From Actinomycetales bacterium (lineage in GTDB: Bacteria > Actinomycetota > Actinomycetes > S36-B12): DNA of 64,000 nt. Position 1 is the first letter of the stretch. Each line of letters opens with the position of its first letter. The notes under the pieces were generated by a model. That model made no database searches and had not been told where the DNA came from. It saw only the letters and a list, made by a program, of their open reading frames with translations. The position numbers and the translations under genes were made by a program. This document shows, in pieces, positions 25,848-52,095 of this stretch. The stretch lies in assembly GCA_016125355.1 (NCBI GenBank), contig WGLX01000006.1, forward strand, positions 109,047 to 173,046, read 5' to 3'.

Positions 25848-27632
25848 GTGGATCCGTCCGGGTCAGCGAACCAGACCGTGCCCTCGACGAGCACGGCAAC
25901 CCGCGATGCCCGAGAGCTCCTTGGCTTCGCATGGCGTTCGGAGCCCCGACGGCTGGCGTCTCAGTCCGTCCTCCTCGTGGCCACCGGCCTCACCGGAGGA
26001 ATCAGCATGCTCATGCTGGTGCCGGTCGTGAACTCCGTCGCCGGATCGTCCGGGGGAATGACGATCGACATCCCGATCCTGTCCAGCCTGGATCTGTCGG
26101 GGATCCCCCTCCCCGTCCTCCTCCTCATCGTGGTCGCACTGGTCGCCCTGCAGTCCGCACTGTCCTATGCATCGTCGGTGAGCGCCGTCCGGCTGCAGCA
26201 GCTCGTGGTCGACCGGCTCCGGTCGCGCGCCTTCGTGGCGATCCTGGCCGCCCGCTGGGAGTTCGTCCTGGACTCCCGCCGCAGCGACATCGCCGAGATC
26301 GCGACCACCGGCGCTAATCGATGCGGACAGGCCATGAGCGGACTGCTGCGAGCGGCCGTCGCCGCCGTCCTGTCGATCGCCACGGCCGTGGTGGCCCTCA
26401 TCGTGGCGCCCCTCCTCGCCGGGCTGACCATCGTGGCAGTGCTGGCCTTCTCGATCGGACTCATGCGGAGCCTGCGGCCCGCACACGAGATGGGGCAGGC
26501 GTACGGCCTCCGCAATCGAGTCCTGCAGTCCGTCATGCTGAACTCGCTGGACTCCCTCCGGCTGGTCCGGGCGCACGGGGCGGCCGACGTCTGGACGGAT
26601 CAACTGACGGTCGCCTTCGGGGACACCCGCGCCATCCAGCTGGCGAACGTGCGACGCACATCCCGCGTCGCGGCGGTCGCCGCGATCGGTCTGGCGGCGA
26701 GCGCTGCCCTCCTCGTCTTCGTCGCCGTCCAGCTGGACGTGCCGGCCGCGACGATCGTCGTGGTCCTCGTGCTCGCGGCCAGGCTCTCGGCGTCAGTACG
26801 CGGCGTACTGAGCAGCCTGCAGCAGGCGGCGAATGCGCTGCCCGCAGTCGCCGACGTGCGCGAACTGACCGAGCGTGCCGTGGCGGCCGCGGAGAACGGT
26901 GGCGGCCTGGCCGCCCTCCCCCCGCCCGATCCGTCACGCCCGACCGTCGCGCTGCGGAGAGTGACGTACCGCTACCCGGACAGCGATGAGGGCGTCCTCG
27001 ATCTCACTTTCGACATCCCGCGCGGTCGCATCACTGCCCTCGTGGGCCCCTCGGGCGCTGGCAAGTCGACCACCGCCGACATCGTCCTCGGACTCCTGCA
27101 CCCGCGGGAGGGCACCATCGAGGTCGATGGCACGCCGCTCACCCCAGAGCTGCTCGAGTCGTGGCGTCGGCGCGTTGCCTACGTTCCGCAGGACACGCTC
27201 CTGCTCCCGGGCACCCTGCGCTGGAACCTCGTCTGGTCCAGTGCTCGCGAGTCGGTGTCCGACGAGGAGTGCTGGGCGGCCCTCGATGCCGCCGCCGCAG
27301 GCTTCGTGCGCGCCCTTCCCCAAGGACTCGACACCGACCTCGGCGACCGGGGCGTACGGCTCAGCGGGGGCCAGCGGCAACGCCTGGCGATCGCCCGGGC
27401 GCTCGTCCGACGGCCCGAGGTGCTCGTGCTCGACGAGGCGACCAGCGCCCTCGACGACGCCACCGAGGCAGCCGTCCTGTCCGTGCTCTCCTCCCTGACA
27501 CCAGCGCTCACCGTGCTCGTGATCGCCCACCGCAGCACGACGATCGACGTGGCCGACACGGTCGTGACCCTCGAGAGCGGACGGGTGACGGGGATCGCCG
27601 CACGCACGGGTGCCCGCGGAGGCACTCCGTGA
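25848..27632 (+). CDS. ABC transporter, fused permease/ATPase (RiPP exporter or immunity type)
   Basis: 594 aa with an N-terminal 6-TM-like domain, Walker [10 protein letters not shown], the signature [15 protein letters not shown] and Walker [13 protein letters not shown]. Confidence 0.9.
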
Positions 27633-28420
27633 TCGCCCCCGCGGATCCGGGGCTCGCCACCCTCGACCGCTCCGGCGAGCCATGGCTGGGTCACGCACAC
27701 GGTCTGGGGACGGTCCGGGTGTATGCCGATGGCCGGTACGACGTGGAACCGGCCGAAGGCGCCGACGCACGCGCTGCAGAGACACTCGAGCACGGCTGGG
27801 CCGAGCTGCTCGGGCACATCCGTCTCGGCCGCCGGATCGTCGGCGGGACGGTCATGCTGGCACCGGACGCAGCGGATTCCCTGCTCGTGTCCGGCGGGAT
27901 GACGGAGCAGTCACAGGCATGCGTCCTGCTCGCCGAGCGCGGATGGCGCCGGGTGTCGGACGGCTTCACGCCGATCGACACCACCACTCCCCTGCGCGCC
28001 TACCGTCGGGGCGGACCGTGGCTGGTCCCACGGCGGCTGGGCCTGGACTCCGATCTCCTCGACGGCCGCCGGATCCGACCGGGTGCCACCGCACAGGAGG
28101 TCCCGACCCCACCGGTGCCGGAGTCGGTGCCGCTGCGGGCCCGCGTCCTCGTCTCCGAGCACGAGGCGACGACGGGCGAGCCGGTGCCCGTGCTTGCCGA
28201 GGTGTCCGGCCGCCGCCGTATGGGCGTCCAGTTCCAGGCATTCGCCGACCGGTTCGTGGGGGGCGCTGCGGATCCGGCACGCGTCATGGCCGACGACCTG
28301 GCCATCAGCAGTCTCCCCTTGTCGACCCTGCAATGGCCGGCGCTCTACCTCGCGCCGCGAGACGAGCGACTCGCCGCGGTCGACGCCCTGGTGGACTGGT
28401 GGAGGGGCCTCAACCCATGA
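27629..28420 (+). CDS. HPr-kinase-like protein with a degenerate P-loop (possible pseudokinase or scaffold)
   Basis: GTG at 27629 (GTGA overlap with the ABC stop), 263 aa. It aligns by eye to the other HprK-like proteins here (LLVSGGMTEQSQACVLLAERGWRRVSDGFTPID versus [32 protein letters not shown]), but GxGKST is replaced. Confidence 0.55.
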   Translation: MIAPADPGLATLDRSGEPWLGHAHGLGTVRVYADGRYDVEPAEGADARAAETLEHGWAELLGHIRLGRRIVGGTVMLAPDAADSLLVSGGMTEQSQACVLLAERGWRRVSDGFTPIDTTTPLRAYRRGGPWLVPRRLGLDSDLLDGRRIRPGATAQEVPTPPVPESVPLRARVLVSEHEATTGEPVPVLAEVSGRRRMGVQFQAFADRFVGGAADPARVMADDLAISSLPLSTLQWPALYLAPRDERLAAVDALVDWWRGLNP

Positions 28421-30198
28421 ACGATCCCACCGGCCCGATCGTCTGGCTCGCCTCGTACCCGAAGTCCGGCAATACCTGGTTCCGTGCGATCCTGTCGGCC
28501 GTCAAGCGCGGTACCGAGCTGTTCACCCTCGACGTACTCGCCTCGGGCGGCCAGCCGTTCGGTCTGGCCACCAGCGTCGACGTACTGGGGCTCGATCCCC
28601 GGTGGCTGACCCGCAGCGAGGCCGAGCGGTTGCGGTACACGTTGGTGTCGGGGGCCACCGGCGACGAGCCGCGATTCCGCAAGACCCACGAGCGCTACCG
28701 CACCACGCCGATCGAGTGGCCCGAGGCCGAAGGCGACCCGCCGCCACCATTTCCGGTCGAGGCGACGCGGGCGGCCGTGACGATCGTTCGGGATCCGCGA
28801 GCGGTCGCGGTGTCGCTCGCGCACCACTTCGGCAAGTCGCTCGAGGACTCCGTGGACCGGATGGCCCGTGACGACACCCAGCGCGCCGACCCCGCACGGC
28901 TCATCGGTGAGCAGCCCTGGGGGTCATGGTCCGGTCACGCCAGGGCGTGGCACCCGGCCCATCTGCCCTTCCCCGCCTACCGGATCCGCTACGAGGACAT
29001 GCTCGAGCGGCCGATCGAGACGCTCGTTCCGGTTCTGACCGGCGTGGGGATCGAGGTCGACGAGGCGACCCTCGTCGCGGCGCTGGAACGGGTCCGCATC
29101 GATCGTCTTCAGCAGGACGAGGCCGAGCAGGGCTTCCGTGAGACCCATGCCCGAGCACAGCGCTTCTTCCGATCAGGCTCGGCGGACGCGTGGCGCACGG
29201 AGTTGCCGGCCCACCTGATCCGAGCGATCGAGGCCGACCACCAGGACGTCATGGCGGAGTTGGACTACCCGCTCACCAGCGACGCGCCGACCCGCAGGGC
29301 GACGCTGCGCGCCCGCACATCGGCGCGGCGTCATCGCGTCATTCCGTGGAACCGCCTGCCCGACCACCTCGCCTTGGAGGTGAACGAGGGCGCTGTGCCC
29401 GACACCCTCGACGGCGCCCGCAGCGTCCGGCCCTGGCTCGACGTGGCACCGGGCCGGGCCCTCGTCAGGCTGACCGGCGGGACGCGCGTTCTCGTTGCCG
29501 ACGGCTGCCGAGCGACCGTCCACATCGACGCGGACCAGCGAACCAGCGGCGACTGGGCATGGCCGGTGCAGGGCTGGACGGTCGCTCTGGCGATGCTGCA
29601 GCGCGGTCATCTCGTGCTGCACGCGGCAGCTCTCGAACGCGACGGGCGGGCGGTGTGCGTGGCCGGCGCGACCCGAGCCGGGAAGTCGACGACCGCGGTC
29701 GGACTACTCGATCGCGGCTTCCGGCTGCTCGTGGACGACGTGGCCGTCATGGACCCCGAGGGGGATGGGTCGACCGTCCTCCCGTACCTCAGGGGCGTGC
29801 ATCTGACCCGCTCGGCAGCGGAGCGATTGGGCCTCGACTACGACAACCTGCCCGCCTTGTCCGCTGGCCGCGGCAAGGCGGTCTTCCTCGGCGATGACCC
29901 GGGCGGGATCCCGGTGCCGTTGGGAACGGTCGTCGTCCTTCGGCGCTCGGCGGCGATCGGGGCGGTCACCTCGCGTTGGCTGACCGGGACCGAGAAGCTC
30001 GCCGCCCTCCGGCAGCAGACAGACCGAGACGGTGCTGCGGCCGCGATCCTCGGGCAGGCACCGTACTTCGAGCGCCTGGCGAGGTTGGCCGCGTCGACGC
30101 CCGTCCTCGAACTGACCCGTCCGCCGCGAACGTGGTCACTGCAGGAGGTCGTGGAGGGCGTCATGGCGGCCGAGTCCCAGGTCCTTTCCTCTTCCTGA
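28417..30198 (+). CDS. sulfotransferase fused to an HPr-kinase-like domain
   Basis: ATG at 28417 (ATGA overlap), 593 aa. The N-terminal half has the PAPS 5'-PSB motif SYPKSGNTWFRAIL and the 3'-PB-like TIVRDPRAVAVSLAHH. The C-terminal half has LHAAALERDGRAVCVAGATRAGKSTTAVGLLDRGFRLLVDDVAVMD. There is no in-frame stop between the halves, but an internal start cannot be excluded. Confidence 0.8.
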   Translation: MNDPTGPIVWLASYPKSGNTWFRAILSAVKRGTELFTLDVLASGGQPFGLATSVDVLGLDPRWLTRSEAERLRYTLVSGATGDEPRFRKTHERYRTTPIEWPEAEGDPPPPFPVEATRAAVTIVRDPRAVAVSLAHHFGKSLEDSVDRMARDDTQRADPARLIGEQPWGSWSGHARAWHPAHLPFPAYRIRYEDMLERPIETLVPVLTGVGIEVDEATLVAALERVRIDRLQQDEAEQGFRETHARAQRFFRSGSADAWRTELPAHLIRAIEADHQDVMAELDYPLTSDAPTRRATLRARTSARRHRVIPWNRLPDHLALEVNEGAVPDTLDGARSVRPWLDVAPGRALVRLTGGTRVLVADGCRATVHIDADQRTSGDWAWPVQGWTVALAMLQRGHLVLHAAALERDGRAVCVAGATRAGKSTTAVGLLDRGFRLLVDDVAVMDPEGDGSTVLPYLRGVHLTRSAAERLGLDYDNLPALSAGRGKAVFLGDDPGGIPVPLGTVVVLRRSAAIGAVTSRWLTGTEKLAALRQQTDRDGAAAAILGQAPYFERLARLAASTPVLELTRPPRTWSLQEVVEGVMAAESQVLSSS

Positions 30199-30249
30199 CG
30201 CCATTCGCGGGGCCTTGAAGGCCGAATGGGGACCTGCTTCACTTTGCGG

Positions 30250-30378
30250 ATGAATCGATCATTTCGCCCATGGACGCCGCCGCGGATCGAGATGCTGAGG
30301 AGCGCGGCCTCGGCCGAGAGCGGCAACTCCTCCAGCTCGACGGAGAACACGACGTCCAACCCGTCGGCACCCCGGTAG
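30250..30378 (+). CDS. lasso-type RiPP precursor peptide A-a (42 aa)
   Basis: Not in the ORF track (<60 aa). MNRSFRPWTPPRIEMLRSAASAES|GNSSSSTENTTSNPSAPR. It shares W-x-x-P-x-(I/L/V/M)...A-E-S-G with four other small ORFs. The predicted core is Gly1...Glu8. Confidence 0.75.
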   Translation: MNRSFRPWTPPRIEMLRSAASAESGNSSSSTENTTSNPSAPR

Positions 30379-30448: not shown

Positions 30449-30577
30449 ATGAATACGACAAATCGCCCGTGGTCAGCTCCGCAGATGGAGGTCCTGAGCC
30501 ACGTCCTGTCGGCGGAGAGCGGCAACACCTCATTGATCAGCGAGTCGTCCGTTTCCGGCCCTTCGTCACCGAACTAG
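30449..30577 (+). CDS. lasso-type RiPP precursor peptide A-b (42 aa)
   Basis: Not in the ORF track. MNTTNRPWSAPQMEVLSHVLSAES|GNTSLISESSVSGPSSPN. It has the same length and register as A-a, and conserved codons (ATGAAT...CGCCC(A/G)TGG, GAGAGCGGCAAC). Confidence 0.75.
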   Translation: MNTTNRPWSAPQMEVLSHVLSAESGNTSLISESSVSGPSSPN

Positions 30578-30630: not shown

Positions 30631-30768
30631 ATGACAAACTCATTGCGGATCTGGTCCACCCCTCAGATCCTCGTCCTGCGCTCGACCGCCTCGGCCGAGT
30701 CCGGCACGCACACCACCATCACCGAGGCGACCGCAACCACGTACAGCTCCCCGTCCGGCGGCCGCTAG
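30631..30768 (+). CDS. lasso-type RiPP precursor peptide A-c (45 aa)
   Basis: C-terminal part of track ORF 30433..30768, starting at the ATG at 30631. MTNSLRIWSTPQILVLRSTASAES|GTHTTITEATATTYSSPSGGR. Core Gly1...Glu8. Confidence 0.75.
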   Translation: MTNSLRIWSTPQILVLRSTASAESGTHTTITEATATTYSSPSGGR

Positions 30769-30811: not shown

Positions 30812-33358
30812 TCAGCCCGTGACGTCGTCCATCGCGTCGAGGGCCTCGCGAATCGCGGTCGCCGTGTGCAGCCCTGCGGAGCCCGCGATCATCCCGTTGT
30901 GGGTCGCCTCGACGACCACCTGCGTCAGACGGACGCCGGGAATCGCGCTCCAGCCGAGGTCCGAGCGGTCCTGACGACCGCCACCAGCGCCCACCGCCCT
31001 CACGAGAACCACATCCCCCTCATAAGGACCGTCCTCGTGGTTCCTGCTGGCCACCTTGGCGAGGGCTTCGAAAGCCGCATGCTGACGTTCTCCGCGACGG
31101 GCCACGACCCCTGCGGTGAGGGCAAGCCATCGGCGACGAGCCCGACGCATCGGCAGCCGGGCCGCCCAGAACGCCTTGCGGGTGAGCGACGATGCCTTCC
31201 CCTGCGCGGCGCGCACCGCCTCCGCCTGCCGGAGCGCAGGACGTAGATCCGATCGCAGCCGTCGGGCCCGGTTCACCTGCTCCGTGACGGCCAGCGTGTC
31301 CAGCAGCACCACGAGGGGCACCGTCACCCCACGGGTGGTGAGCACGCGCGCGGTCTGCATGGCCACCGTGCCCCCGATGGAGTGGCCGATCAGCACGACC
31401 GGCCCGGTGCCCGCCACCTCGACGATGTCCGACGCGGCCGTCGTCGCCATGGCCTCGATGGTGCGGTCAGGGCGCTCGCGTCGGTCGAAGCCGCGTGGCA
31501 CAGCGACCCAGGCGGTACGGCCGCCGATCGTCCGTGCCAGCGTGGCCATCCCGGAGGTGTGGCCACCGCCACCGCCCGGGAAGAGCACCATCGGCACCGC
31601 ATCGCTCGGACCGGTCGCCGCGCGCACGAGGCGCTGCCGGTCCGGGGCGGCCGACACCCAGGCCTCGGCGAGGAGGGCGGGCGTTGGGTGGCGAAGGAGC
31701 AACCCCTCGGACACCGGACGTCCCCATACCGCCTCCAGTCGGGCGCAGACCTCCGACAGCGCGAGCGAGTCCGCGCCCAGGGCCAGCAGGTCGTCGTCGC
31801 GGCCGATGGCCGGATCACCGAGCACGGACCCGAACACCTCGGCAGCCTGCTGCTCGAAGGGGGATCGCGGTGGTGAGAACGCCGGCCTTCCGGTCGCCGA
31901 AGCCATGGCGGTGAGCGCCGCTCGGTCCACCTTGCCCCGGTCCGTGGAGGGCAGCGCGTCCAGCACCTCAACGCGGGCGGGAACATGCGTTCGGGGCAGG
32001 CGATCCGCGAGTGCCGCGCGCACCTGCCACCCGCGGAGGTCCTGGCCCACGACGAACGCCACAGGACGGGGGCGACCTGCCTGGTCGACGGCGATCACCA
32101 CGGCCGCCTCGTCCACGCCAGGCACGCGGCGCACGACGGCCTCGACCTGAACCGGGTCCACGAGCGCTCCCGAGACCTTGACGACATCGTCGGAGCGTCC
32201 CCGCAGGATCAGGGCGCCTGAGACGTCCCACGTGGCCCGGTCGCCGGTCCGGTACGACCGCCCTGTCGGGAGGTCGAGAAACCTCTCGGCGGTTCGCTCG
32301 GGGTCGTCGAGGTAGCCCAAGGCCAGCCATTCGCTCGACACGACAACCTCGCCGACGTCCTCCGGCCCGACGTCCCCACCATCCGGCCCGACCACCCGCA
32401 CCGTGAGCCACGGCACGACCTCGGTCAGCGGAATGGGATCGGTCGGGACGGGCTCCCCCGGGGGGATGCGAACGCCGGCGATCCAGTTGGTCTCGGAGGT
32501 GCTGTACCGGTGGAGCAGGGTTGCCTCGGGGAACAGCGCCCGTGCGCGATCGATCTGGGCAGCGGTCAGCCGGTCGCCGCCGAGGCTGACCAGGCGGACC
32601 CCCGGCAGGGGCGGCATGTCAGCGGACGCCAGCGCAGTGAGGGCTGCCGGCGCCAGGTGCGCGACGGTGACGCCCTCATCGGCGAGGCGATCGAGCACCG
32701 TGTGCGGACCCTCGGCGCTCAGGTCGGCCGTGATCAGGCGTGCGCCGTGCACCAGTGCGGTCCACGTGGGCGTGCCCGCCGCCACGGCGGAGAACGGGCT
32801 GGACACGAGCACCACGTCGTCTTCCGTGATCCCGACGGAACGGCCGTACGACTCGGCGTTGTGCACGATGCTCCGATGGGCGTGCACAACCGCCTTCGGG
32901 CGGCCCGCGGTCCCCGATGTCATCGAGACGGACGCAGGCAGCCCAGCCGCGGGCCAGCTCGGCGAAGTGATGGTCCGCGGGGGCGCTTCGACAGGAATCA
33001 CCTGCGGCCCCAGATCCAGAGCGGCTCGGCGGTGCAGGATGTCGGCAACCACCGCGCCCACGGAGTGCCGCGCCAGGACCTCCGCGTGGAACGCCGGCGG
33101 AGCATGGGGATCGAGCACGAGGTAGGCACGTCCCGACCAGGCGACACCGAGCATGGCCGCAACCATGTCGAGCCCGTCAGTGCACAGCACCGCCACGGGC
33201 CGGTCGGGCAGGGGGGCATCGCCCACCGCGGCGGCGAGCGCGGCGGATCGGACCGCGAGCTCGCGATAGGACAGAGCGCCGTGACGGGACAGGACGGCGA
33301 CCTTGTCGCAGTCCTCGCGGCCGGCGAGGACAGACTCGGGGAGGCTGCGGTCAGCCAT
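30812..33358 (-). CDS. stand-alone NRPS-like protein: adenylation - PCP - thioesterase
   Basis: 848 aa. A-domain cores: SMTSGTAGRPKAV, YSTSET, YRTGD, GRSDDVVKVSG and PSTDRGKVDR. PCP: LGADSLALSE. TE: GHSIGG. Its start overlaps the cyclase stop by 8 nt. Confidence 0.88.
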   Translation of the reverse strand: MADRSLPESVLAGREDCDKVAVLSRHGALSYRELAVRSAALAAAVGDAPLPDRPVAVLCTDGLDMVAAMLGVAWSGRAYLVLDPHAPPAFHAEVLARHSVGAVVADILHRRAALDLGPQVIPVEAPPRTITSPSWPAAGLPASVSMTSGTAGRPKAVVHAHRSIVHNAESYGRSVGITEDDVVLVSSPFSAVAAGTPTWTALVHGARLITADLSAEGPHTVLDRLADEGVTVAHLAPAALTALASADMPPLPGVRLVSLGGDRLTAAQIDRARALFPEATLLHRYSTSETNWIAGVRIPPGEPVPTDPIPLTEVVPWLTVRVVGPDGGDVGPEDVGEVVVSSEWLALGYLDDPERTAERFLDLPTGRSYRTGDRATWDVSGALILRGRSDDVVKVSGALVDPVQVEAVVRRVPGVDEAAVVIAVDQAGRPRPVAFVVGQDLRGWQVRAALADRLPRTHVPARVEVLDALPSTDRGKVDRAALTAMASATGRPAFSPPRSPFEQQAAEVFGSVLGDPAIGRDDDLLALGADSLALSEVCARLEAVWGRPVSEGLLLRHPTPALLAEAWVSAAPDRQRLVRAATGPSDAVPMVLFPGGGGGHTSGMATLARTIGGRTAWVAVPRGFDRRERPDRTIEAMATTAASDIVEVAGTGPVVLIGHSIGGTVAMQTARVLTTRGVTVPLVVLLDTLAVTEQVNRARRLRSDLRPALRQAEAVRAAQGKASSLTRKAFWAARLPMRRARRRWLALTAGVVARRGERQHAAFEALAKVASRNHEDGPYEGDVVLVRAVGAGGGRQDRSDLGWSAIPGVRLTQVVVEATHNGMIAGSAGLHTATAIREALDAMDDVTG

Positions 33359-34940
33359 CGCCCGTGCCGTCCCGGTCTGCTCGGGTCCGGCGGACGAGCT
33401 CCAGCAGCACGGGGTCGTCCTTCGACGTCATGCGGATGTGGTCGGGCACGAGGCCGTCCAGGGCCTTGCGGAACACCAGGCGAGTGTGCCCGCCCAGGCG
33501 GAACACCTCCGGCGGCATGGCCAGCGCCCACTCGACGAGCCGCACGTCCAGTAGGGGGTAGCGGTACTCGACCCCGAAGAGGAGCCCGGCCTCCCGCCAC
33601 GACTCGATCCGGCGCGCCAGGTGGTCGTTGGCGATGAGCGCCTCCTGCACGCCGCGGGGCGAACCCGCCGACCGCAGCCGCACCCGGTGCGCGCGCTGCG
33701 CAGCCACCAGCTCGGGGTGCTCGTGGCCGGTGCTCGCCATGAACTTCTCGCTCGTGCGGGGCTCTTGACGCCTCCCGCCGCGAAGTCGATCCCAGGGATC
33801 CCCGCCCGGCAGCGCCTCCAGCGCCAAGTCCGAGGCCGCCTGTGCACGGGACCGCCCGCGCGACCGGAGTTCCCGATAAGCGGCGCGAACCGGACCGACC
33901 TTGATGGAGCGCACCAGGGCCCGATTCGTCATGCGTCCGTTGAAGCTGGCGAACTCATCGCCGCCCCACCCGCTGAAGATCTGGCGGACGCCGAACTCCG
34001 CATACCGCGGGAGGATCGTGGACTCCCGATTGAGGGTGGAACGAGGCAGCCGGACCGGATCGATCCGCGCCAGCCACTCGGCTTCTCCCAGTTCGTGATG
34101 CCCGAAGATGACCGGCAGGTCGTGCTCAGCGGCCAGCTCCTGGACCAGGGCCCGTTCGTCATAGGCGATGTCGGCACTGTCGAGCGAAGGCAGCGATACC
34201 GGATCGGGGGACCAGGACACGACGGCCGCCAGCGTGCGCCCGCGGGAAGCCAGCTCGCGTTGGACGAGCAGTGCCACGGCCGTGGAATCGAGGCCGCCGG
34301 ACAGGTGTGCGGCGATCGCGTTGACGTCGTCGTGAGGTTCGCCGCGGAGCGCCGCCTCGACGTGGTCTGCCACGACGCCGAGCAGCAGCGCGCGCAGGCA
34401 GTCGGCGGCCTGGTCCACGGAGATGCCGCGCGCCTTCGGCACCTTCTCGGGGAGCCACCACCGGGTGACCGCTGCCTCGCGTCCTTGAATGCGCACCGCA
34501 CAGCCGGGAGGCACGCGATGGACGCCTGCCGCAGGCGTGCGGGTCGGCACCGTCGCGAGCGCGCGGGCCTTGGTCGCCCATGCGAATTCGGCGTCCGCTG
34601 CGATGCCTCCCGGCCGCGCAGCGAGAACCTCGGCGAGGGAGTCGGCGACCACCACGCCGTCGTCCGTTCGGGACCAGTACACGGGCATCAGGCCGAGTTG
34701 GTCCCGGACGATGAGGAGCCCGTCGCCGTCATCGACGGCGTATCCCCACGCACCGCGGAGGCGGGGGCCGGCGGCCCCTCCCCACCGCGTGGCGGCGGCT
34801 GACACGACCTCGCCATCCGAGGCAGAGGCGGATAGCCCCAACCCCGTCTCGAGCTCGGCCCGGTTCGTCAGCCAGCCAGCACTCCACACCACCTCGGCAG
34901 CGGGAGGGTCGGCCAGCACGTGGACATTGTGCCGCGTCAT
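33351..34940 (-). CDS. asparagine-synthetase-like lasso peptide cyclase (C protein)
   Basis: 529 aa. An N-terminal Ntn-like region is followed by the PP-loop AHLSGGLDSTAVA and the AsnB-type C-terminus (GVEYRYPLLDVRLVEWAL). It is divergent from precursor A-d, 54 nt away. Confidence 0.85.
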   Translation of the reverse strand: MTRHNVHVLADPPAAEVVWSAGWLTNRAELETGLGLSASASDGEVVSAAATRWGGAAGPRLRGAWGYAVDDGDGLLIVRDQLGLMPVYWSRTDDGVVVADSLAEVLAARPGGIAADAEFAWATKARALATVPTRTPAAGVHRVPPGCAVRIQGREAAVTRWWLPEKVPKARGISVDQAADCLRALLLGVVADHVEAALRGEPHDDVNAIAAHLSGGLDSTAVALLVQRELASRGRTLAAVVSWSPDPVSLPSLDSADIAYDERALVQELAAEHDLPVIFGHHELGEAEWLARIDPVRLPRSTLNRESTILPRYAEFGVRQIFSGWGGDEFASFNGRMTNRALVRSIKVGPVRAAYRELRSRGRSRAQAASDLALEALPGGDPWDRLRGGRRQEPRTSEKFMASTGHEHPELVAAQRAHRVRLRSAGSPRGVQEALIANDHLARRIESWREAGLLFGVEYRYPLLDVRLVEWALAMPPEVFRLGGHTRLVFRKALDGLVPDHIRMTSKDDPVLLELVRRTRADRDGTGDG

Positions 34941-43337: not shown

Positions 43338-43448
43338 CGCCTCCGACGTGCGCGCCCAGCCGGCCACGCGTGCCCGGGGCGATGTCGTCACGAGGCCGAG
43401 TGTAGGCGCGGGCCCCACCGCCGCGCGGCTCTCGGCTACCGTCGACGC

Positions 43449-44601: not shown

Positions 44602-44694
44602 CTAGACCTGCGAGATGGCCCGGGCGTCCTCGACGAGGGCGACTTCATCCACGGTCGGCGGCTGCCAGGGCTCGAGGGGGGTGTGCTCCATCAT
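44602..44694 (-). CDS. 30-aa leader-like small peptide (type II, possibly truncated or a decoy)
   Basis: Not in the ORF track. MMEHTPLEPWQPPTVDEVALVEDARA|ISQV. It begins 9 nt after the dioxygenase stop, and has the W-x-x-P-x-V motif and Ala at W+14 like the other seven peptides. Only 4 residues follow the shared register point. Confidence 0.35.
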   Translation of the reverse strand: MMEHTPLEPWQPPTVDEVALVEDARAISQV

Positions 44695-45795: not shown

Positions 45796-45912
45796 ATGGC
45801 TGACGACATGAACACGTGGCAGGCCCCCGAGGTCACGCAGATCACCGACGCTGGCGGCGCCACCCCCGACGCCACGGCGAACATCCGCAACGGGACCTCG
45901 CAGCAGGTCTGA
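45796..45912 (+). CDS. type II RiPP precursor-like peptide (38 aa)
   Basis: C-terminal part of track ORF 45514..45912. MADDMNTWQAPEVTQITDAGGATP|DATANIRNGTSQQV. It has the leader motif W-Q-A-P-E-V, and Thr at position -2 as in canonical lasso leaders. Confidence 0.6.
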   Translation: MADDMNTWQAPEVTQITDAGGATPDATANIRNGTSQQV

Positions 45913-45957: not shown

Positions 45958-46080
45958 ATGCCAGAGAGCCCTGACGACTGGCAGGCGCCAGAGGTCACAC
46001 CGCTGACCGACCCGGACGGCGCCTCCCAGTATCCGCACGCCCGAATCCGCAACCTCGAGTCCCCCAGCCCGCCGCCCTGA
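45958..46080 (+). CDS. type II RiPP precursor-like peptide (40 aa)
   Basis: Not in the ORF track. MPESPDDWQAPEVTPLTDPDGASQ|YPHARIRNLESPSPPP. It shares WQAPEVT and A-x-I-R-N with the preceding peptide. Confidence 0.6.
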   Translation: MPESPDDWQAPEVTPLTDPDGASQYPHARIRNLESPSPPP

Positions 46081-46097: not shown

Positions 46098-46958
46098 ATG
46101 CCGAACGCCCTGTCCTCGTCGATCGCCTTCCTCGAGGACCGCTGGGGCGTCGAGGTCGTCGTGGGGAACGCGCCACGCGCGCTGGCGAAGCCCACCCGCG
46201 ACGAGGGCTTCATGCAGATGGCACCCGGTGAGTTCCTCGCCCTCATTGACGACCTCGGGCGCATGCACGTGACCACCGACCGCGTCGTCCTCGACCCCGA
46301 CCCGGGCGTCGACCTGGCCGACATGGACTACCTCGTCTACGGCTGGGCACCACGGTGGATCCGGGTCCTGCGCAGCCAGTTCACGCTCCACGCCTCGGCC
46401 GTCCTCCATCGCGGACGGGCTATCGCCGTCATGGGATTCTCGGGCGCCGGCAAGTCCACCACGGTCACGGCACTCGACCGTCGCGGCTACCCGCTGGTCA
46501 TCGACGATGTACTGCCGGTCGACATCGACGGTGAGGTGCCGTCGGTGCACGGCTGGGAACGACCGGTCCACCTGACCGATGAGGCCGCCGCCCACCTCCG
46601 TGTGGATGAGACCGCCCGCGTCGGCACGGGCGAGCTGAGCAAGATCGCCGCCACCGTCCCTTCCGTGGAGGGGTCATGGCCGCTGGCCATCGCGATCGAG
46701 CTGCGACCCGACGAGTCGGCATCGGCCGTTCAGGTCACCCGGCTGACCGCAGCGACCAAGCTCCAGGCGGTGGTGAACCACTCGAACGGGGCAGGCTTCT
46801 CGGCGGCCGACGGCCGAGCCCACGACTTCTTCGCCTGGGCGACCCGCGTGACGCGGGCCATCGATGTCGTCCGGGTGGTCCGACCCACGGAGGGGTGGCA
46901 CCTCGAGGGCGTTGTCGACGCGATCGTGTCCACCATCGAATCAGAAGGGAACCCATGA
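46098..46958 (+). CDS. HPr-kinase-like protein
   Basis: 286 aa. [46 protein letters not shown]. It lies 17 nt after the second type II peptide gene. Confidence 0.8.
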   Translation: MPNALSSSIAFLEDRWGVEVVVGNAPRALAKPTRDEGFMQMAPGEFLALIDDLGRMHVTTDRVVLDPDPGVDLADMDYLVYGWAPRWIRVLRSQFTLHASAVLHRGRAIAVMGFSGAGKSTTVTALDRRGYPLVIDDVLPVDIDGEVPSVHGWERPVHLTDEAAAHLRVDETARVGTGELSKIAATVPSVEGSWPLAIAIELRPDESASAVQVTRLTAATKLQAVVNHSNGAGFSAADGRAHDFFAWATRVTRAIDVVRVVRPTEGWHLEGVVDAIVSTIESEGNP

Positions 46959-47230
46959 CCGACGCGCTCTACCGCCGGGCCCCCGGCGCCGTCGACGCGG
47001 TGGTCGACGGACAGGTGGTCCTGCTCGCCCCGGTGGACTTCAGCTACCAGTCCCTCGACCGGGTCGGCGGCCGGGTCTGGGAGCTCCTCGCCGAGCCGAG
47101 GACCGTGGACGATCTCGTCGGCATGCTGCGATCGCAGTTCGACGTCGACGAGGCCCGCTGCCGCGCCGACCTGCTGCCGTTCCTCGACCGCATGACGTCG
47201 CTCGGCATCCTCGAGCGGGACGCGTCCTAG
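46955..47230 (+). CDS. PqqD-family RiPP recognition element (second copy)
   Basis: ATG at 46955 (ATGA overlap), 91 aa. AVDAVVDGQVVLLAPVDFSYQSLDRVGGRVWELLAEPRTVDDLVGMLRSQFDVDEARCRADLLPFLDRMTSLGIL. Confidence 0.8.
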   Translation: MTDALYRRAPGAVDAVVDGQVVLLAPVDFSYQSLDRVGGRVWELLAEPRTVDDLVGMLRSQFDVDEARCRADLLPFLDRMTSLGILERDAS

Positions 47231-48405
47231 TCGGATTCAGACGGACGGACGAGCACGCGGCGCCGGAACAGGTCCCCCAGCTCACCGCCCATGGCCGCCA
47301 CGGTGCCCGCGAACCCGGTTCCCGGGGGCAGCCGCTCCGGGGGGAACAGGCCGTCCACCACGGCCATGCCGATCGCCGCCGGTGCACCGGCGTACCGACC
47401 GGACTCCCGGTAGATCCCGACGATCTCCCCGAGCGGGATGTCGTCGTCGATCCACGGGCGCCGCACACTGGCATGGGCGTACGTGCTCCGCAGCCGGTCG
47501 AGGTCGACGCTGCCCTCCGGCACGAAGGCACGCCGCCGCTCCTCTGGGATACCGCCCAGCAGGTCGTCCGCGAGGGCGACCGCCTCGCCAATGACCCTCC
47601 TCAGCCGCCAGTGCGCATCCACGGGCAGTCGGACGTCGTCACGTCGCGCGAGACGGACGATGTCCACGATGCTGCGGAGCCGGTTGTAGCGGTCGATGGC
47701 GGCGCTGTAGCAGACCACCGCGAAGGCATCGGGCAGCGACAGCGTTGGGACCTCGGCATCGGCGATCCGCACGCTGGCCGGACGCGCGAGCAGCACCTCC
47801 GCGCCGGGCAGGGGTCGCTCGTGCCAGCCGATCCGCCAGTGCAGGTCGATGGCGCTGTCGGCGCCGACGTACGACCGTTCCCGTCGCACGCGCAGGTAAT
47901 GACCCCACCAGCGCGGCGCATCCGGGATGGCCTCACCGGCCCACCCCGCCGATTCGAGGGCCTCGTGGGCGCGCGGCACGTCCGCCGGCCGCACGAGGAT
48001 GTCGATGTCGCCGAACCCGCGGGCGGCGAGTCCGCCGGTGGTCTGCAGGCTCAGGGCGATGCCCTTGTAGACCAGTGCTGGGACGTCGGCGTCGGCAAGG
48101 ACCTGCAGCGCACGACTCGTCTCCACGGACAGGCGCAGCGCCCGGACGGCATCCCCGCGGGCGCGGGCGCGGAGCGCGCTCGCGATGGGGTCGGGCGCGG
48201 CCAGGGCCGTCAACTGCGAGGTGAGCAGCGGGGCGACGCGGTGCAGGGTCACGGCGTGCAGCAATCCGCTGGGGTGCACGGCACTCCAGTCGACGGACGG
48301 GACGCCGTCCAGGCGACTTCCGCCGGCGACTTCGGCGGCTAGGGCCACCCGGCAGGCGCGCTGGACCTGGGCGACGTCCCCGGCGTCGATGATGGGATCG
48401 GTCAC
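47227..48405 (-). CDS. uncharacterised nucleotidyltransferase-family protein (PF14907-like)
   Basis: 392 aa. LVYKGIALSLQTTGGLAARGFGDIDILVRPADVPRAHEALESAGW is the typical signature of this family, which commonly neighbours PqqD/HprK-like genes. Confidence 0.7.
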   Translation of the reverse strand: MTDPIIDAGDVAQVQRACRVALAAEVAGGSRLDGVPSVDWSAVHPSGLLHAVTLHRVAPLLTSQLTALAAPDPIASALRARARGDAVRALRLSVETSRALQVLADADVPALVYKGIALSLQTTGGLAARGFGDIDILVRPADVPRAHEALESAGWAGEAIPDAPRWWGHYLRVRRERSYVGADSAIDLHWRIGWHERPLPGAEVLLARPASVRIADAEVPTLSLPDAFAVVCYSAAIDRYNRLRSIVDIVRLARRDDVRLPVDAHWRLRRVIGEAVALADDLLGGIPEERRRAFVPEGSVDLDRLRSTYAHASVRRPWIDDDIPLGEIVGIYRESGRYAGAPAAIGMAVVDGLFPPERLPPGTGFAGTVAAMGGELGDLFRRRVLVRPSESD

Positions 48406-48423
48406 GGCAGGAGCGGGTCGGCG

Positions 48424-48777: not shown

Positions 48778-48784
48778 GCGCTGA

Positions 48785-49687
48785 TCATGCCGGATCCGGT
48801 GCGCTCCCACCCCGTCTGTGGCGGAGCCGGTGACCAGTCTGCTTGGCGCGTTCGATGAGCGGGTCCTGCACCATCGGTGGCACCGACGGCGCCACGCCTG
48901 CGCGGTGGGCCGCTCGCCAGGAGTCGGCGATTGACTGCGAGCGCACCAGGTCGCGCGCCCGCGCCGGCACCTGCTCCCACACCGAAGGATGGGCCGACGC
49001 CACGAGGGAGAGGTCGAGCAGCCAGCCATCGGTGCCCGGCGCCCCGCGCGAGGCGAGGATCCGAGCCGCCTCCCAGTCGGCCCTCATCACGACCAGGCTG
49101 CCACCTTCTCGGGACACCTCCGCCCTGCCCGGTACCAGCGCTCGACGGAGCGATCCGCTCTCCCAGTGCGTCCAGCCCCTCACCAGCCGGACGGTCGTCG
49201 CCTCGCTCGACGCGGCCACGGCGATGCCCTCATCCCGCCACGCCGCACGTGGGATTGCGGTCGCGAGCGCGTCCACCAGGTCGTCGCGGCTCTTTGCCGG
49301 GTCGACCCAGATCCGCACGGCACTGACGGGCACGGTGCCCGCGTCGGCCTCGTAGGTCACGGCGAGCGTCAGCTCACCGGTGACCGCGTGGTCGATGCCC
49401 CCGGACGACAGCAGCGCGCTCACCTCCGACCCCCGCCGGACCGCGAGTTCGGTGGCGTAGTGGTTGCGCCGCCTCAGGCCCTGAACCCGGGCATGCCACG
49501 GCGAGTCCTCCCGCAGCTCGGCCTGGAGCATCGTCAGGCCCCGCCAGCACACGAGCGGCGTCGTGTCGGGATCCAACGACGCCAGCACCGCGGCGATCCG
49601 ATCCCGCAGGTCCGCTGGCCGGCTCTCCACCGGCATCGCCGCCCACGCGATGATCGGCCACCACGACGGGGATCGCTCCGCCGTCAC
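48785..49687 (-). CDS. hypothetical protein
   Basis: 300-aa ORF with good coding bias, overlapping the upstream gene's stop (49684) by 4 nt and ending 7 nt before lsr2. No motif recognised. Confidence 0.5.
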   Translation of the reverse strand: MTAERSPSWWPIIAWAAMPVESRPADLRDRIAAVLASLDPDTTPLVCWRGLTMLQAELREDSPWHARVQGLRRRNHYATELAVRRGSEVSALLSSGGIDHAVTGELTLAVTYEADAGTVPVSAVRIWVDPAKSRDDLVDALATAIPRAAWRDEGIAVAASSEATTVRLVRGWTHWESGSLRRALVPGRAEVSREGGSLVVMRADWEAARILASRGAPGTDGWLLDLSLVASAHPSVWEQVPARARDLVRSQSIADSWRAAHRAGVAPSVPPMVQDPLIERAKQTGHRLRHRRGGSAPDPA

Positions 49688-52095
49688 TGCGACCGGTTCC
49701 GCTGCCGGGCTCGCGCGACCACCTGGAGGTAGTCCAAGCGGGACTCGCCCATCTCAGCCGTCATGTTGCGGCCATGCGCCCGTCGCAGGAGCACCACGTC
49801 GTCGACGGCCCGCTCCGCGATCCCCAGGGCGCGGGCCCGCTCCACCCAGTCGATGCCCTCCCCGACGCGCAGGTCCTCCTCGAAAGGCCCGACCACCTTG
49901 AAGGCCCGACGCGTCACGAGCAGTGCCCCCGGCAGCGGGACCGGCGGCGACGGATCGACGGGCCATGGTTGGTCCTCGTCCGGAACCTCGGCACCGGCGA
50001 ACCGCACCTGGCGGCCGTACGCGATGCCGCGCTCGATCCCGTCCAAGGCTTCGATGAGCGCCCGGCTGCGTCCGCGGGGCCAGGCGTCGTCCGCGTCGAG
50101 GAAGGCCACCCACGCAGCGGACCCGACGGCGACTCCGGAGTTCCGGGCCGCCCCGGCGCCCCGCCGCTCCCCATGCTCGACGATCCGGACGCGATCGATG
50201 TGCCCGGAGGGCACGTGGGCGACAAGGTCCTCGTCCAGGCCGTCGTTCACGAGGATGACCTGAACGTCCACACCCTCCTGCGCCAGGGCGGACTCGACCG
50301 CGGTGCGGAGATAGGCGGTCTCGCCGCCGACCGGGATGACGACGTCCAGCCTCGGCCGGGCCTGCGACCCCACGCGAGCGTGGTGGGCGCGCACGATGGC
50401 GAGCAGCCTGCTGGCCATGCCGACCGATGTCTTGGACTGGTTCGCATCGTGCATCTGCCGCACGAGCACGACGTCGTCGACCTCGCAGCAGGGCTGCCCG
50501 GAGTCGCGCAGGCGCATGAGCCAGTCGACGTCGTCGGTACCGGAGCCGTCGTCCTCGTCGAAAGGCCCCACGTCGGTGAACAGGGCTCGCGAGAACAGCC
50601 CGGCACCGACCACGCGACCCGGGTGGGAGCCCTCGAACCACTCACGGCGCATCCATGCCTGTGCGCTCTCGGGCACGATCGCGACGAACTCCATGCGCCC
50701 GAAGGCAGCGGCGGCGCGCTCCCGTCGCACAGCCGCAAGGAGCACCTCGACGTGGTCGACTGACCACAGGTCGTCCTGGTCCACGAAGGCGATGAACTCC
50801 GACGTCGCGGCCGCGATGCCGCTGTTGCGAGCCGCAGCAACCCCGCGGTTCCCGTCGTGCTCGACGATGCGCAGGTCGTGACCGCGCTTCCGGGCCTCGT
50901 CGACCAGCCCGTGAAGGACCTCGCGGGAGTCATCAGTGGACCCATCGTCGACGGCGACGATCTCGAGGCGACCGGAGGTCTGCTGCAGGACGGCTGCGAT
51001 CGTGCGGGCGAGGAAGCGCGCCCCGTTGTAGACCGGCAGGATCACGCTGACTCGGGGGCGCACGTCGTCGACGATCTCGCCCAGGTCGCGCAGGGTGTCG
51101 TCCAGGCTCTGCCGACGCGGCAGCACCCGGGCCGGCAGCTCGCTGCACGCCTGCCCGAACCGGGAGAGAACGGCGGCGCGGTCGAACGGCAGCGGCATGA
51201 CGGTGTTGGGAGCCCCCACCCGCCGGGCAGCCGCCGGATCGATCGTGGCCCACGGACGATCGGCCGGTGCCCAGGGATCGAGGGCCAGCAGTCCGTCGAT
51301 CCGCATGCTCGGGGTGAGCAGCCGATCGTCCGTAGCCGTCAGCAGGTGCGCCCGCTTGTGCCCGTGGATGTCCCACGTGACGACGTCCGGTCCCGCGGGA
51401 GCCTCCTGTCCCGGCTGCAGCTTCGTCTTGACCGCCGCGTAGACGGCGTACGCGGCCCACCCCCGCGCATCGGGCCGAACGAGGACGGCGTCGTCCCCGC
51501 AGGTGACCCACCCGTGGTTCAGCGCGGCGAGCGTCGTCGTCGACTTGCCGTATCCCGCATCGCCGAGGAGCAGCAGGCCACGGGGCTCCTCGCCGTGCCC
51601 CCCGCGCCCGACGGTGGCGGCGTGGGCGAGGAAGCCGCCCGAGGCGGCGGCCGTCCAGTGCACGAGGAAGCGGAGGGGGCTGACCTGGTCGTACCCGCTC
51701 GGCTCGGCGGCGGTGAGGAGCACGGCCTGGCCGGTCGCCGGGTCCCATCCGAGCACATGGCCCGCAGCCTCCTGCCAGACGAGACGCACGTCCGTCTCCT
51801 CGAGCCCGACGACCTCACCGCGCGGGCCCAGGTCCCCACGGCGCAGCGGCGGTGGGGACACGGATGAGGGCAGGTCGGCGAACGAGGCGGACACCAGGGA
51901 GACGTCCGGGTCGGAGCCCTGCCACGGACGCGCCCACGCGCGGTCGAAGGAAGAGAACCACTCCGGTCGCGCCGTCGCGTGCGCCATCGTGACCGGCCCC
52001 CACTGGGCGCCCGACAATGGGCGGGACACCGGTCGCAGGGCCTCATGGACCTCGTCGATCCAGGCGGCCACCAGCGTCGAGACGTCGGCAACCAT
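49684..52095 (-). CDS. tri-domain protein: HPr-kinase-like domain + two family-2 glycosyltransferase domains
   Basis: 803 aa. N-terminal LLLLGDAGYGKSTTTLAALNHGWVTCGDDAVLV. GT2 number 1: VSVILPVYNGARFLARTIAAVLQQ...VAVDDGSTDDS...FVDQDDLW. GT2 number 2: LDVVIPVGGETAYLRTAVESALAQ...ILVNDG...FLDADDAW. Confidence 0.85.
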   Translation of the reverse strand: MVADVSTLVAAWIDEVHEALRPVSRPLSGAQWGPVTMAHATARPEWFSSFDRAWARPWQGSDPDVSLVSASFADLPSSVSPPPLRRGDLGPRGEVVGLEETDVRLVWQEAAGHVLGWDPATGQAVLLTAAEPSGYDQVSPLRFLVHWTAAASGGFLAHAATVGRGGHGEEPRGLLLLGDAGYGKSTTTLAALNHGWVTCGDDAVLVRPDARGWAAYAVYAAVKTKLQPGQEAPAGPDVVTWDIHGHKRAHLLTATDDRLLTPSMRIDGLLALDPWAPADRPWATIDPAAARRVGAPNTVMPLPFDRAAVLSRFGQACSELPARVLPRRQSLDDTLRDLGEIVDDVRPRVSVILPVYNGARFLARTIAAVLQQTSGRLEIVAVDDGSTDDSREVLHGLVDEARKRGHDLRIVEHDGNRGVAAARNSGIAAATSEFIAFVDQDDLWSVDHVEVLLAAVRRERAAAAFGRMEFVAIVPESAQAWMRREWFEGSHPGRVVGAGLFSRALFTDVGPFDEDDGSGTDDVDWLMRLRDSGQPCCEVDDVVLVRQMHDANQSKTSVGMASRLLAIVRAHHARVGSQARPRLDVVIPVGGETAYLRTAVESALAQEGVDVQVILVNDGLDEDLVAHVPSGHIDRVRIVEHGERRGAGAARNSGVAVGSAAWVAFLDADDAWPRGRSRALIEALDGIERGIAYGRQVRFAGAEVPDEDQPWPVDPSPPVPLPGALLVTRRAFKVVGPFEEDLRVGEGIDWVERARALGIAERAVDDVVLLRRAHGRNMTAEMGESRLDYLQVVARARQRNRSQ

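Follow-up and report, generated by a model that had tools for sequence, protein, structure and literature searches.

HprK-like kinases form an established, though little-explored, class of tailoring enzymes in gene clusters for peptides that are synthesized on ribosomes and modified after translation (RiPPs). In paeninodin-like clusters they phosphorylate or polyphosphorylate a serine of the linear precursor, and in pseudomycoidin biosynthesis a nucleoside triphosphate (NTP) transferase then adds a hexose to the phosphate (PMC8498205). LppK from Bacillota polyphosphorylates an internal serine and belongs to a module with a RiPP recognition element (RRE) and an NTP-transferase (PMC13381572). 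All characterised HprK-like proteins of RiPP pathways are active serine kinases (PMC8498205; PMC13381572). A lasso-cluster sulfotransferase is named in a 2021 review merely as a putative flanking gene (PMC8498205). In the literature searched we found no description of a sulfated lasso peptide and no characterised lasso-associated sulfotransferase, sulfotransferase–kinase fusion, fusion of a kinase to a family 2 glycosyltransferase (GT2), or HprK-fold pseudokinase. Here we describe a stretch of 64,000 nucleotides from an Actinomycetales bacterium (assembly GCA_016125355.1, contig WGLX01000006.1, forward-strand positions 109,047 to 173,046; hereafter the window) that encodes five HprK-like domains in the proteins A to E. 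Domain searches and profiles bear out the arrangement given in an earlier note on this DNA: A, C and D are stand-alone, the domain of B lies C-terminal to a sulfotransferase, and that of E lies N-terminal to two GT2 domains. The explanation that we favour, to which as a whole we assign a probability of about 55%, is that the locus is an actinobacterial lasso-peptide supercluster of the paeninodin type (Trp-x-x-Pro leader) that combines eight precursor-like genes with an unusually rich set of tailoring genes. Its domains would represent a RiPP-associated branch (HprK_rel_A/B, ScmC-like) of the P-loop kinases related to HprK and phosphoenolpyruvate (PEP) carboxykinase (PEPCK), with four kinases, coupled fusions and one pseudokinase partner.

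PadeK, ThcoK and PsmK of the paeninodin and pseudomycoidin pathways (Zhu et al. 2016; Zyubko et al. 2019; via PMC8498205) resemble the window in their HprK-like kinases, split B1 and B2 proteins, cyclase, ATP-binding cassette (ABC) exporter and Trp-x-x-Pro leaders, and in having an NTP_transf_5 nucleotidyltransferase and a putative sulfotransferase nearby. Unlike these systems, the window comes from an actinobacterial host and holds four intact kinases and one pseudokinase, with one kinase fused to a sulfotransferase and another to two GT2 domains; its precursors end in PS(G)xx(x) and not in Ser. The linear phosphorylated peptide (LPP) family of LppK likewise combines an HprK-like kinase with a discrete RRE, an NTP-transferase and an exporter; its modules are often co-localised with lasso clusters, and the internal Ser is phosphorylated repeatedly (PMC13381572). 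In contrast to LPP modules, the window belongs to another phylum, has no SpI-like signal peptidase, has E fused to GT2 domains, and contains a presumed RRE (U3, discussed below) that is not recognised by Pfam. With the bifunctional HprK/P enzymes (PDB 1kkm, 1jb1, 1ko7, 3tqf) the domains share the catalytic-domain fold and the His...GxSGxGKS...DD segment, but the sequence alignment spans only 40–55 residues, and the domains are found in RiPP biosynthesis rather than in carbon catabolite control. A Pfam scan found no match to Hpr_kinase_N (PF02603) in any of the five proteins, in which short beta-rich domains precede the catalytic domains. Because this N-domain is missing and scores stay under the Pfam and TIGR cutoffs, the domains are not HprK/P proper. 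Their best database neighbours, for B, C, D and E, are the computationally defined families of Haft, HprK_rel_A (TIGR04352), HprK_rel_B (TIGR04355) and ScmC (TIGR04249/PF27840), HprK-like proteins that travel with PqqD-family proteins. PF27840 is precomputed on many B- and E-family proteins, but all these neighbours score far under cutoff and no window domain reaches the family thresholds.

At about 70% GC the window is rich in spurious open reading frames (ORFs), and genes were therefore called from third-position GC frame plots. The plots back precisely the five ORFs A to E; C starts at 35207, and an upstream ATG at 35012 falls within a precursor ORF region. The coding phase changes exactly at 27629-27632, where the stop of the ABC exporter gene overlaps the start of A (GTGA), and at 28417-28420, where the stop of A overlaps the start of B (ATGA). 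A and B are thus separate, translationally coupled genes, as had been noticed before. A single ORF of 862 residues spanning both, present in a mechanical ORF list, is ruled out by these switches. A frameshift artefact between A and B is ruled out as well, since all three GC phases switch exactly at the two overlaps and genes identical to A and B lie on an independent Logan contig.

A six-frame hidden Markov model (HMM) scan of the whole window detected exactly five HprK-like domains, at the positions that the earlier note had reported, and all five belong to the HprK/PEPCK-like P-loop kinase superfamily according to profile–profile comparison and structure prediction with fold search. For the C-terminal domain of B (residues 312-588), C and D the assignment comes from sequence and profiles; for A and the N-terminal domain of E, Foldseek provides fold-level evidence. 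The first three are paralogues over about 275 residues (blastp 2.5e-49, 2.6e-21 and 4.7e-25, the last being D to C). C matches HprK/P structures at 4e-5 in a PDB sequence search, with the L. casei enzyme aligned across His...GDSGxGKS...DD, and the family profiles of B (1e-7) and E (5e-4) match HprK/P as well. The family of the E N-domain aligns to the HprK-like family with an hhalign probability of 93.5% (E 2e-7, 180 columns). A gave no match in Pfam, NCBIfam or PDB sequence searches and a pairwise blastp value of 0.017 with C, so that its homology is argued from profiles and structure. The A-family profile aligns with the HprK-like family over 217–240 columns (hhalign probability 95–98.6%, E 3e-8 to 1e-15), and the A-family HMM scores C, D and the C-terminal domain of B at 1e-10 to 1e-11. 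In the PDB, the AlphaFold2 (AF2) model of A (pLDDT 92) retrieves HprK/P first (1kkm, 1kkl, 3tqf; E 4e-5, probability 1.0, TMt 0.5–0.64), followed by PEP carboxykinases. For the E N-terminal model (pLDDT 91) PEP carboxykinases come first (E 2e-8, TMq 0.59). HprK/P and PEPCK form one fold class, which places all five domains in that superfamily and upholds the HprK relationship proposed earlier.

The catalytic residues, mapped by family alignments, divide the domains four to one, as the earlier note had read from the P-loops. Aligned to the family model, the C-terminal domain of B, C, D and the N-terminal domain of E all retain LxxHA...G(x)4GKST...(D/G)DD, with P-loops GATRAGKS (B), GDSGAGKS (C), GFSGAGKS (D) and GDAGYGKS (E); the corresponding segment of A reads SGGMTEQSQ. 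Among 35 homologues of B, residues H402, G417, G422-K423-S424 and D440-D441 are invariant, and the same holds for H158, G178, G181, G183-K184-S185-T186 and G200-D201-D202 among 20 homologues of E. An invariant His, Walker A and DD is the pattern expected of active phosphotransferases. In view of the RiPP-kinase precedent (PMC8498205; PMC13381572), the four intact domains are most likely active ATP-dependent kinases of precursor-peptide serines, which would function in the manner of PadeK, PsmK and LppK. The pattern G..G.GK[ST] fits 111 of the 120 listed B homologues, most often as G-H/N/R-R-G-A-G-K-S. In the Walker A motif of B itself the canonical Gly at the fourth position is Arg, and its nucleotide handling may differ.

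The earlier note suggested instead that the HprK fold is reused for substrate recruitment, in which case the modules fused to the sulfotransferase and the GT2 domains would be non-catalytic peptide-binding domains that deliver the precursor without phosphorylating it. Such a role would agree with the persistence of the fold in A without a P-loop, with the survival of the kinase–sulfotransferase pairing where the upstream kinase is degenerate (the A family and locus L017, see below), and with the binding of precursor peptides by PadeK-type kinases (PMC8498205). However, the invariant His, GxxxxGKS(T) and DD of the fused families are hard to explain without nucleotide-dependent chemistry. Dedicated PqqD-type proteins are present (25568-25843 and a probable second at 52107-52514), and the characterised relatives are active kinases without exception (PMC8498205, PMC13381572). 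Recruitment in place of catalysis is thus quite unlikely for the fused modules, and the proposal does not hold for the four intact domains; it is plausible only for the P-loop-less A.

The kinase domain of B is joined to a sulfotransferase domain that scores 69.5 bits with Sulfotransfer_1 (PF00685; cutoff 22). Its 5'-phosphosulfate-binding motif (5'-PSB, PKSGNTW), catalytic His (KTH) and 3'-phosphate-binding motif (3'-PB, RDPRxxxxS) are intact, and K16, S17, G18, T20, W21, H91, R125-R128 and S133 are invariant in the 35 homologues. In these features it resembles StaL, Teg12, Teg14 and cytosolic SULT1A, and the family profile matches SULT1A, Teg12 and StaL at 1e-19 to 1e-15. Unlike B, these enzymes stand alone, and their substrates are glycopeptides or small phenols. 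More than 115 protein clusters, mostly from metagenome-assembled genomes of Actinomycetota, have this two-domain architecture (39–58% identity, about 600 residues). A scan with the B alignment over one genome per species returned more than 510 relatives, also from Pseudomonadota, Bacteroidota, Chloroflexota, Gemmatimonadota, Verrucomicrobiota, Acidobacteriota and an archaeon.

Domain order was mapped in 80 loci. Outside Actinomycetota the kinase and then the sulfotransferase are encoded by separate adjacent genes, in more than 50 loci from many phyla. Overall this adjacency is found in 57 loci, and the GKS/T of the kinase is intact in all but the actinobacterial L017. In the actinobacterial clade (10 loci) the upstream gene is the P-loop-less A, and an intact kinase is fused to the C-terminus of the sulfotransferase in most cases. 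Two of these loci, L009 and L010, encode a sulfotransferase without a fused kinase domain. In L008 the order is kinase, sulfotransferase, kinase, all unfused, which looks like an intermediate. The kinase–sulfotransferase fusion is the standard actinobacterial form of a pan-phylum pairing; to call it unusual, as was done before, overstates the case for B. In L017 (Thermoleophilaceae) the upstream copy is independently degenerate. Three further candidates for P-loop loss, L008, L042 and L072, were discarded when the alignment showed that xxGKST is kept, which leaves L017 and the A family as the only truly degenerate upstream copies. The possibility that the fused kinase makes 3'-phosphoadenosine 5'-phosphosulfate (PAPS), in the manner of an adenosine 5'-phosphosulfate (APS) kinase, was also rejected: its fold is HprK/PEPCK-like and not that of an APS kinase, and the same kinases occur beside precursors without sulfotransferases.

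In A, Gly replaces the catalytic His, GGMTEQSQ replaces Walker A and DG replaces DD. A word-index homologue search returned A alone; an exhaustive phmmer/HMMER search gave a family of 86 representative proteins (250–290 residues, 50% clustering). A P-loop is absent from all 51 aligned members, and the catalytic positions are not conserved in the family, so that the pseudokinase state is a family trait and not a one-off mutation. Conservation is found at Trp and Gly positions (consensus ALLxxGxxxxxAxVxxxLxxRGWxxLADRxTP), and the fold is retained in full in A, N-terminal beta domain included, with hhalign covering residues 12-237. An A-like gene lies directly upstream of the sulfotransferase gene in 10 of 10 related actinobacterial loci, which is the position held in other phyla by a P-loop-intact kinase gene. 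When A was compared by hhalign with three positional sets of kinases the probability was 98% for each, which gives no preference between the kinase upstream of the sulfotransferase and another paralogue as the ancestor of A. From its sequence and position, A is most likely a non-catalytic partner of the sulfotransferase–kinase fusion, either as a scaffold or as a peptide-presenting subunit.

One could also regard A as the functionless, decaying relic of a duplicated kinase, or the fusions as products of misassembly or frameshifts. The lack of Pfam, NCBIfam and PDB sequence matches for A would fit this, as would the fact that full-length E is on record in no other assembly. A decaying gene would not be expected to form a family of this size with conserved Trp and Gly positions, full length and a confident model, nor to be translationally coupled to B and syntenic in all 10 loci. 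The independent contig with identical A and B genes, the recurrence of the B architecture in its many clusters and a frame around the E junction without a stop further argue against artefacts. We consider this reading very improbable; it is already largely refuted, and the fusions are genuine single ORFs, as the earlier note had assumed. In L009 (8057-10088) and L010 (1448-3455) an A-like pseudokinase is paired with a sulfotransferase of about 410 residues that has no kinase domain, and no lasso genes lie within the 10-kb flanks; such a pair may function outside lasso clusters too.

The second fusion, E, has 184 bits with GT2 (PF00535) in two stretches, above the cutoff, with DQDD and DADD motifs. 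The 20 homologues of its N-domain are stand-alone or fused to one GT2. Synechococcus sp. CBW1004 (L084) encodes the kinase and a GT2 in two neighbouring genes; L083 has a fusion of the kinase with one GT2, and a separate GT2 downstream. The window protein aligns to the kinase–GT2 protein of L083 over residues 6-575 (47% identity) and to the separate GT2 over residues 581-797 (43%). Near the E junction all frames are free of stops, and the reading frame runs on with high third-position GC. E is a stepwise fusion of genes that neighbour each other elsewhere, which can be traced from Synechococcus through L083 to the window.

Immediately upstream of E lies U3, which we regard as a probable PqqD-like recognition protein. 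The weak hhalign match to PqqD has 64% probability (E 7e-5, with only three sequences per side); Pfam gave no match to U3, and neither Pfam nor NCBIfam confirmed the assignment. A U3-type gene also precedes the E homologues in L083 and L084. U3 and its homologues (L084 9585-10004; L083 1-345) share a near-invariant C-terminal tail, W..(A/E)DL.I.E(H/F)TDMADLLGLDPIHD.D..GWP, after the PqqD-like N-domain. The tail opens with a leader-like W-x-x-x-D-L and might serve as a pseudo-leader within the molecule or be a substrate in its own right. In L084 (CP060397.1, 2.469-2.491 Mb) the order is NTP_transf_5, U3-like protein, kinase, GT2, a 313-residue protein, GT1 and GT2. This module shows 50% identity to an actinobacterial protein and is embedded among housekeeping genes, which could reflect either horizontal transfer or a broader, non-lasso role. 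The set of GT1, U3, E, U2 and NTP_transf_5 also occurs without lasso genes and looks like a second, portable tailoring module.

These properties of E raise the possibility that some of the domains, above all the N-terminal one of E, are small-molecule kinases that act on a sugar or nucleotide sugar, or form a donor, and feed the fused transferases. The best structural matches of this domain, the PEP carboxykinases, and the presence of the module in Synechococcus without a cyclase, B2 or obvious precursor point that way. The PEPCK match does not discriminate, however, because HprK and PEPCK share one fold. The E-family profile still matches HprK/P where His, P-loop and DD lie, and it aligns with the HprK-like family from RiPP clusters; a putative PqqD-like protein is always found immediately upstream of E homologues, and NTP_transf_5 is a RiPP tailoring enzyme (PMC13381572). 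We therefore regard small-molecule substrates as unlikely.

Returning to the favoured explanation, we infer kinase activity, the substrate and its site, the order of steps and the partner role of A from sequence, and propose the following scheme. The four intact kinases would phosphorylate precursor peptides, with the conserved Ser of the C-terminal P-S-G/x tail as the likely target; B, C and D each appear to be encoded next to their own precursor genes. The fusions would hard-wire ancient partnerships between gene neighbours and link the phosphorylation of a peptide to its subsequent tailoring step. In B, a kinase with a PAPS-dependent sulfotransferase, phosphorylation would be followed by sulfation, and in E, a kinase with two GT2 domains, by glycosylation. 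These later groups could be placed on or beside the phosphoserine, comparable to phosphoglycosylated pseudomycoidin. A would serve as a non-catalytic scaffold or as a peptide-presenting partner of the sulfotransferase–kinase fusion. In a more specific version, kinase and sulfotransferase form an obligate two-enzyme unit by which one conserved Ser of lasso precursors receives a composite modification, one possibility being sulfation of, or next to, phospho- or polyphosphoserine, and the actinobacterial form is a heteromer with A as the peptide-presenting pseudokinase. We consider this version tentative and rather doubtful.

The precursor-like ORFs provide the context for this scheme. All eight carry the W-x-x-P-x-h-x-x-L leader motif that is typical of paeninodin-type precursors. 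Three follow B, one lies on each side of C, two precede D and one is on the minus strand; in L001, precursor-like ORFs are arranged in the same way around B, C and D. An X1-G2-x6-E9 core, which fits a nine-residue macrolactam, is found in precursors 1-3 and 5, and precursor 4 has Asp7 and Glu10 but not Glu9. The lasso rule is a YxxP or WxxP leader with Thr at -2 and Asp or Glu at core position 7-9; in the window precursors position -2 is Ala. The tails of precursors 1-5 are rich in Ser and Thr and have the PS(G)xx(x) ending; they terminate in PSAPR, PSSPN, PSGGR, PSGQA and PSGNV, while ORFs 6, 7 and 8 end in SQQV, SPPP and SQV. With the cleavage sites that were tried, core positions 7-9 of ORFs 6-8 hold no acidic residue. 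These ORFs form a second precursor class without the X-G-x6-E core, and may be linear rather than lasso substrates. Ser is the last residue of 57 of the 86 distinct leader-motif ORFs in related loci; the background is 9%.

Several observations weigh against the favoured explanation. The C-terminal Ser is the phosphorylation site of PadeK-type kinases (PMC8498205), and no window precursor ends in Ser, so that the paeninodin rule does not apply literally. The scores with described families are low: with Hpr_kinase_C (PF07475, cutoff 33.3 bits) B reaches 19.4, C 30.1, D 18.4 and E 17.5 (E-value for E 3e-3), with matches that span the P-loop region only; with TIGR00679 the scores are 16-28 bits against a cutoff of 240; and with HprK_rel_A, which has a cutoff of 200 bits, B reaches 56 (3e-15), C 46.3 and D 30.7. 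The Walker A motif of B is GATRAGKS, the family form being G-x-R/S-G-A-GKS. The closest folds to the N-terminal domain of E are small-molecule kinases, and the Synechococcus locus with an E homologue has no lasso genes or recognisable precursor. Since full-length E is absent elsewhere, its last GT2 junction, seen only in this window, lacks independent assembly support.

Among the core genes of the locus (Table 1) are those for PqqD, a lasso B2, an ABC exporter and a putative Asn-synthase-like cyclase, the company expected of a paeninodin-type precursor kinase. The PqqD protein scores 73.5 bits with Pfam PqqD (cutoff 23.4) and 1.2e-14, under cutoff, with NCBIfam lasso_PqqD. B2 reaches 54.2 bits with NF033537 (cutoff 33). 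The putative cyclase has 83 bits with Asn_synthase, over the cutoff, and 94.8 bits (4.7e-27) with the NCBIfam lasso cyclase NF033535, for which the cutoff is 525. The order PqqD-(B2)-ABC-A-B-precursors-adenylation-carrier-thioesterase (A-T-TE) protein-cyclase-precursor-C-A-T-TE protein-DUF2332 is kept in L001, L002 and a JGI contig.

Table 1. Features of the window discussed in the text; a slash divides the two parts of a precursor.
Feature	Position	Strand	Description	Evidence or context
PqqD	25568..25843	+	PqqD-family leader-binding protein (lasso B1)	Pfam PqqD 1.7e-20; first gene of operon PqqD-ABC-A-B
ABC exporter	25848..27632	+	Transmembrane and ATPase domains; lasso D-like	Pfam ABC_tran 8e-33, ABC_membrane; stop overlaps A start (GTGA)
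A	27629..28420	+	HprK-like pseudokinase, 263 aa	Fold match; His, Walker A and second Asp all lost
B	28417..30198	+	PAPS-type sulfotransferase (~nt 28438-29316) and HprK-like kinase domain (~nt 29350-30180)	Sulfotransfer_1; HprK_rel_A 3e-15
Precursor 1	30250..30378	+	MNRSFRPWTPPRIEMLRSAASAE/SGNSSSSTENTTSNPSAPR	WxxPxhxxL leader, S1-G2-x6-E9 core, PS-tail, leaderless-type -10 hexamer
Precursor 2	30449..30577	+	MNTTNRPWSAPQMEVLSHVLSAE/SGNTSLISESSVSGPSSPN	Leader motif, -10 hexamer
Precursor 3	30631..30768	+	MTNSLRIWSTPQILVLRSTASAE/SGTHTTITEATATTYSSPSGGR	Leader motif, -10 hexamer
A-T-TE protein 1	30812..33358	-	Adenylation-carrier-thioesterase protein	Pfam AMP-binding, PP-binding, Thioesterase
Cyclase	33351..34940	-	Asn-synthase-like macrolactam (lasso) cyclase, putative	Pfam Asn_synthase 4e-23
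Precursor 4	34995..35132	+	MTSKMPWGTPELTLLRSAVDAE/SGTRYSDSSEGQSQLTFVPSGQA	Directly upstream of C; equivalent ORF before C homologue in L001
C	35207..36049	+	Stand-alone HprK-like kinase, 280 aa, intact catalytic triad	Hpr_kinase_C 4e-7, HprK_rel_A 3e-12
Precursor 5	36093..36233	+	MRTQKPWAAPEVALLRAAGDAQ/GGTYSWSTENSETATGCVVPSGNV	Leader motif, -10 hexamer
A-T-TE protein 2	36244..38862	-	Adenylation-carrier-thioesterase protein	Pfam; synteny in related loci
B2	42888..43370	-	Lasso leader peptidase (transglutaminase-like)	Pfam Transglut_core3 8e-14; NCBIfam lasso_biosyn_B2
Precursor-like ORF 8	44602..44694	-	MMEHTPLEPWQPPTVDEVALVEDARAISQV	WxxP leader motif, -10 hexamer 6 nt upstream; just downstream of PhyH-like gene
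Precursor-like ORF 6	45796..45912	+	MADDMNTWQAPEVTQITDAGGATPDATANIRNGTSQQV	Leader motif, -10 hexamer
Precursor-like ORF 7	45958..46080	+	MPESPDDWQAPEVTPLTDPDGASQYPHARIRNLESPSPPP	Directly upstream of D
D	46098..46958	+	Stand-alone HprK-like kinase, 286 aa, intact triad	HprK_rel_B 5e-8, HprK_rel_A 1.6e-7
NTP_transf_5	47227..48405	-	NTP_transf_5 protein, PsmN/LppN-type tailoring enzyme	Pfam PF14907 2.3e-36; PMC8498205, PMC13381572
E	49684..52095	-	HprK/PEPCK-like kinase domain (nt 51061-52095) and two GT2 domains (nt 49684-51060)	Pfam GT2; fold
U3	52107..52514	-	Probable PqqD-like recognition protein, conserved C-terminal tail	Immediately upstream of E; hhalign PqqD
GT1	52555..53727	-	GT1/GT4-type glycosyltransferase of E module	Pfam Glyco_trans_1_4 6.5e-22; conserved near E homologues

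The first A-T-TE protein travels with the cluster and is syntenic in L001, L002, L007 and the JGI contig. Two A-T-TE proteins and DUF2332 accompany the lasso core in L001 and L002. In the JGI contig two A-T-TE proteins occur with an isocitrate/isopropylmalate-dehydrogenase-like gene and an isochorismatase–aldehyde dehydrogenase fusion. The corresponding region of the window comprises 30812-33358 (-), 36244-38862 (-), 38859-39815 (-), 39878-40993 (+) and about 41005-42891 (+). The sub-clade with A-T-TE genes is the one in which precursors end in PSG plus two or three further residues and not in a C-terminal Ser, and this co-occurrence hints at a modification of the peptide tail in the manner of nonribosomal peptide synthetases. 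Two other conserved proteins have no Pfam or NCBIfam match: U1 (43449-44576, +, about 375 residues), which adjoins B2, and U2 (48785-49687, -, 300 residues), between E and NTP_transf_5. By position and similar size their counterparts are a 378-residue gene after B2 in the JGI contig and the 313-residue gene after GT2 in L084, respectively.

A -10-like hexamer T[AT]NNNT is found exactly 6 nt before the ATG of all precursor-like ORFs, against a background of 11 of 1354 ATGs (0.8%). It is also found at the starts of PqqD (25568, +), U1 (43449, +), a GT61 gene (54847, +) and the PhyH-like gene (45723, -), and several of the starts with a hexamer also have a TTGA or TTGT element near -35. Judged from these elements, each precursor looks like a separate leaderless transcription unit.

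What the window adds to the known occurrence of HprK-like kinases in RiPP clusters are the sulfotransferase–kinase and kinase–GT2 fusions, the pseudokinase partner and the pan-phylum kinase–sulfotransferase pair. Kinase and PAPS sulfotransferase are genetically tied: their genes are neighbours in more than 50 loci of many phyla, and in Actinomycetota the two are fused. A retained family of P-loop-less HprK-fold proteins as the upstream partner of the sulfotransferase offers a clean natural experiment to separate catalytic from scaffolding roles of this fold. If the heteromer with a peptide-presenting pseudokinase is real, it would be the first HprK/PEPCK-fold pseudokinase and the first sulfated lasso-peptide chemistry. 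The second kinase lineage, fused stepwise to glycosyltransferases, suggests routes to phospho-glycosylation beyond pseudomycoidin, and a single cluster can hold eight precursors matched to separate kinases. The locus and its relatives thereby provide concrete targets that can be cloned in the search for lasso peptides with sulfate, phosphate and sugar groups, and portable peptide-tailoring enzymes.

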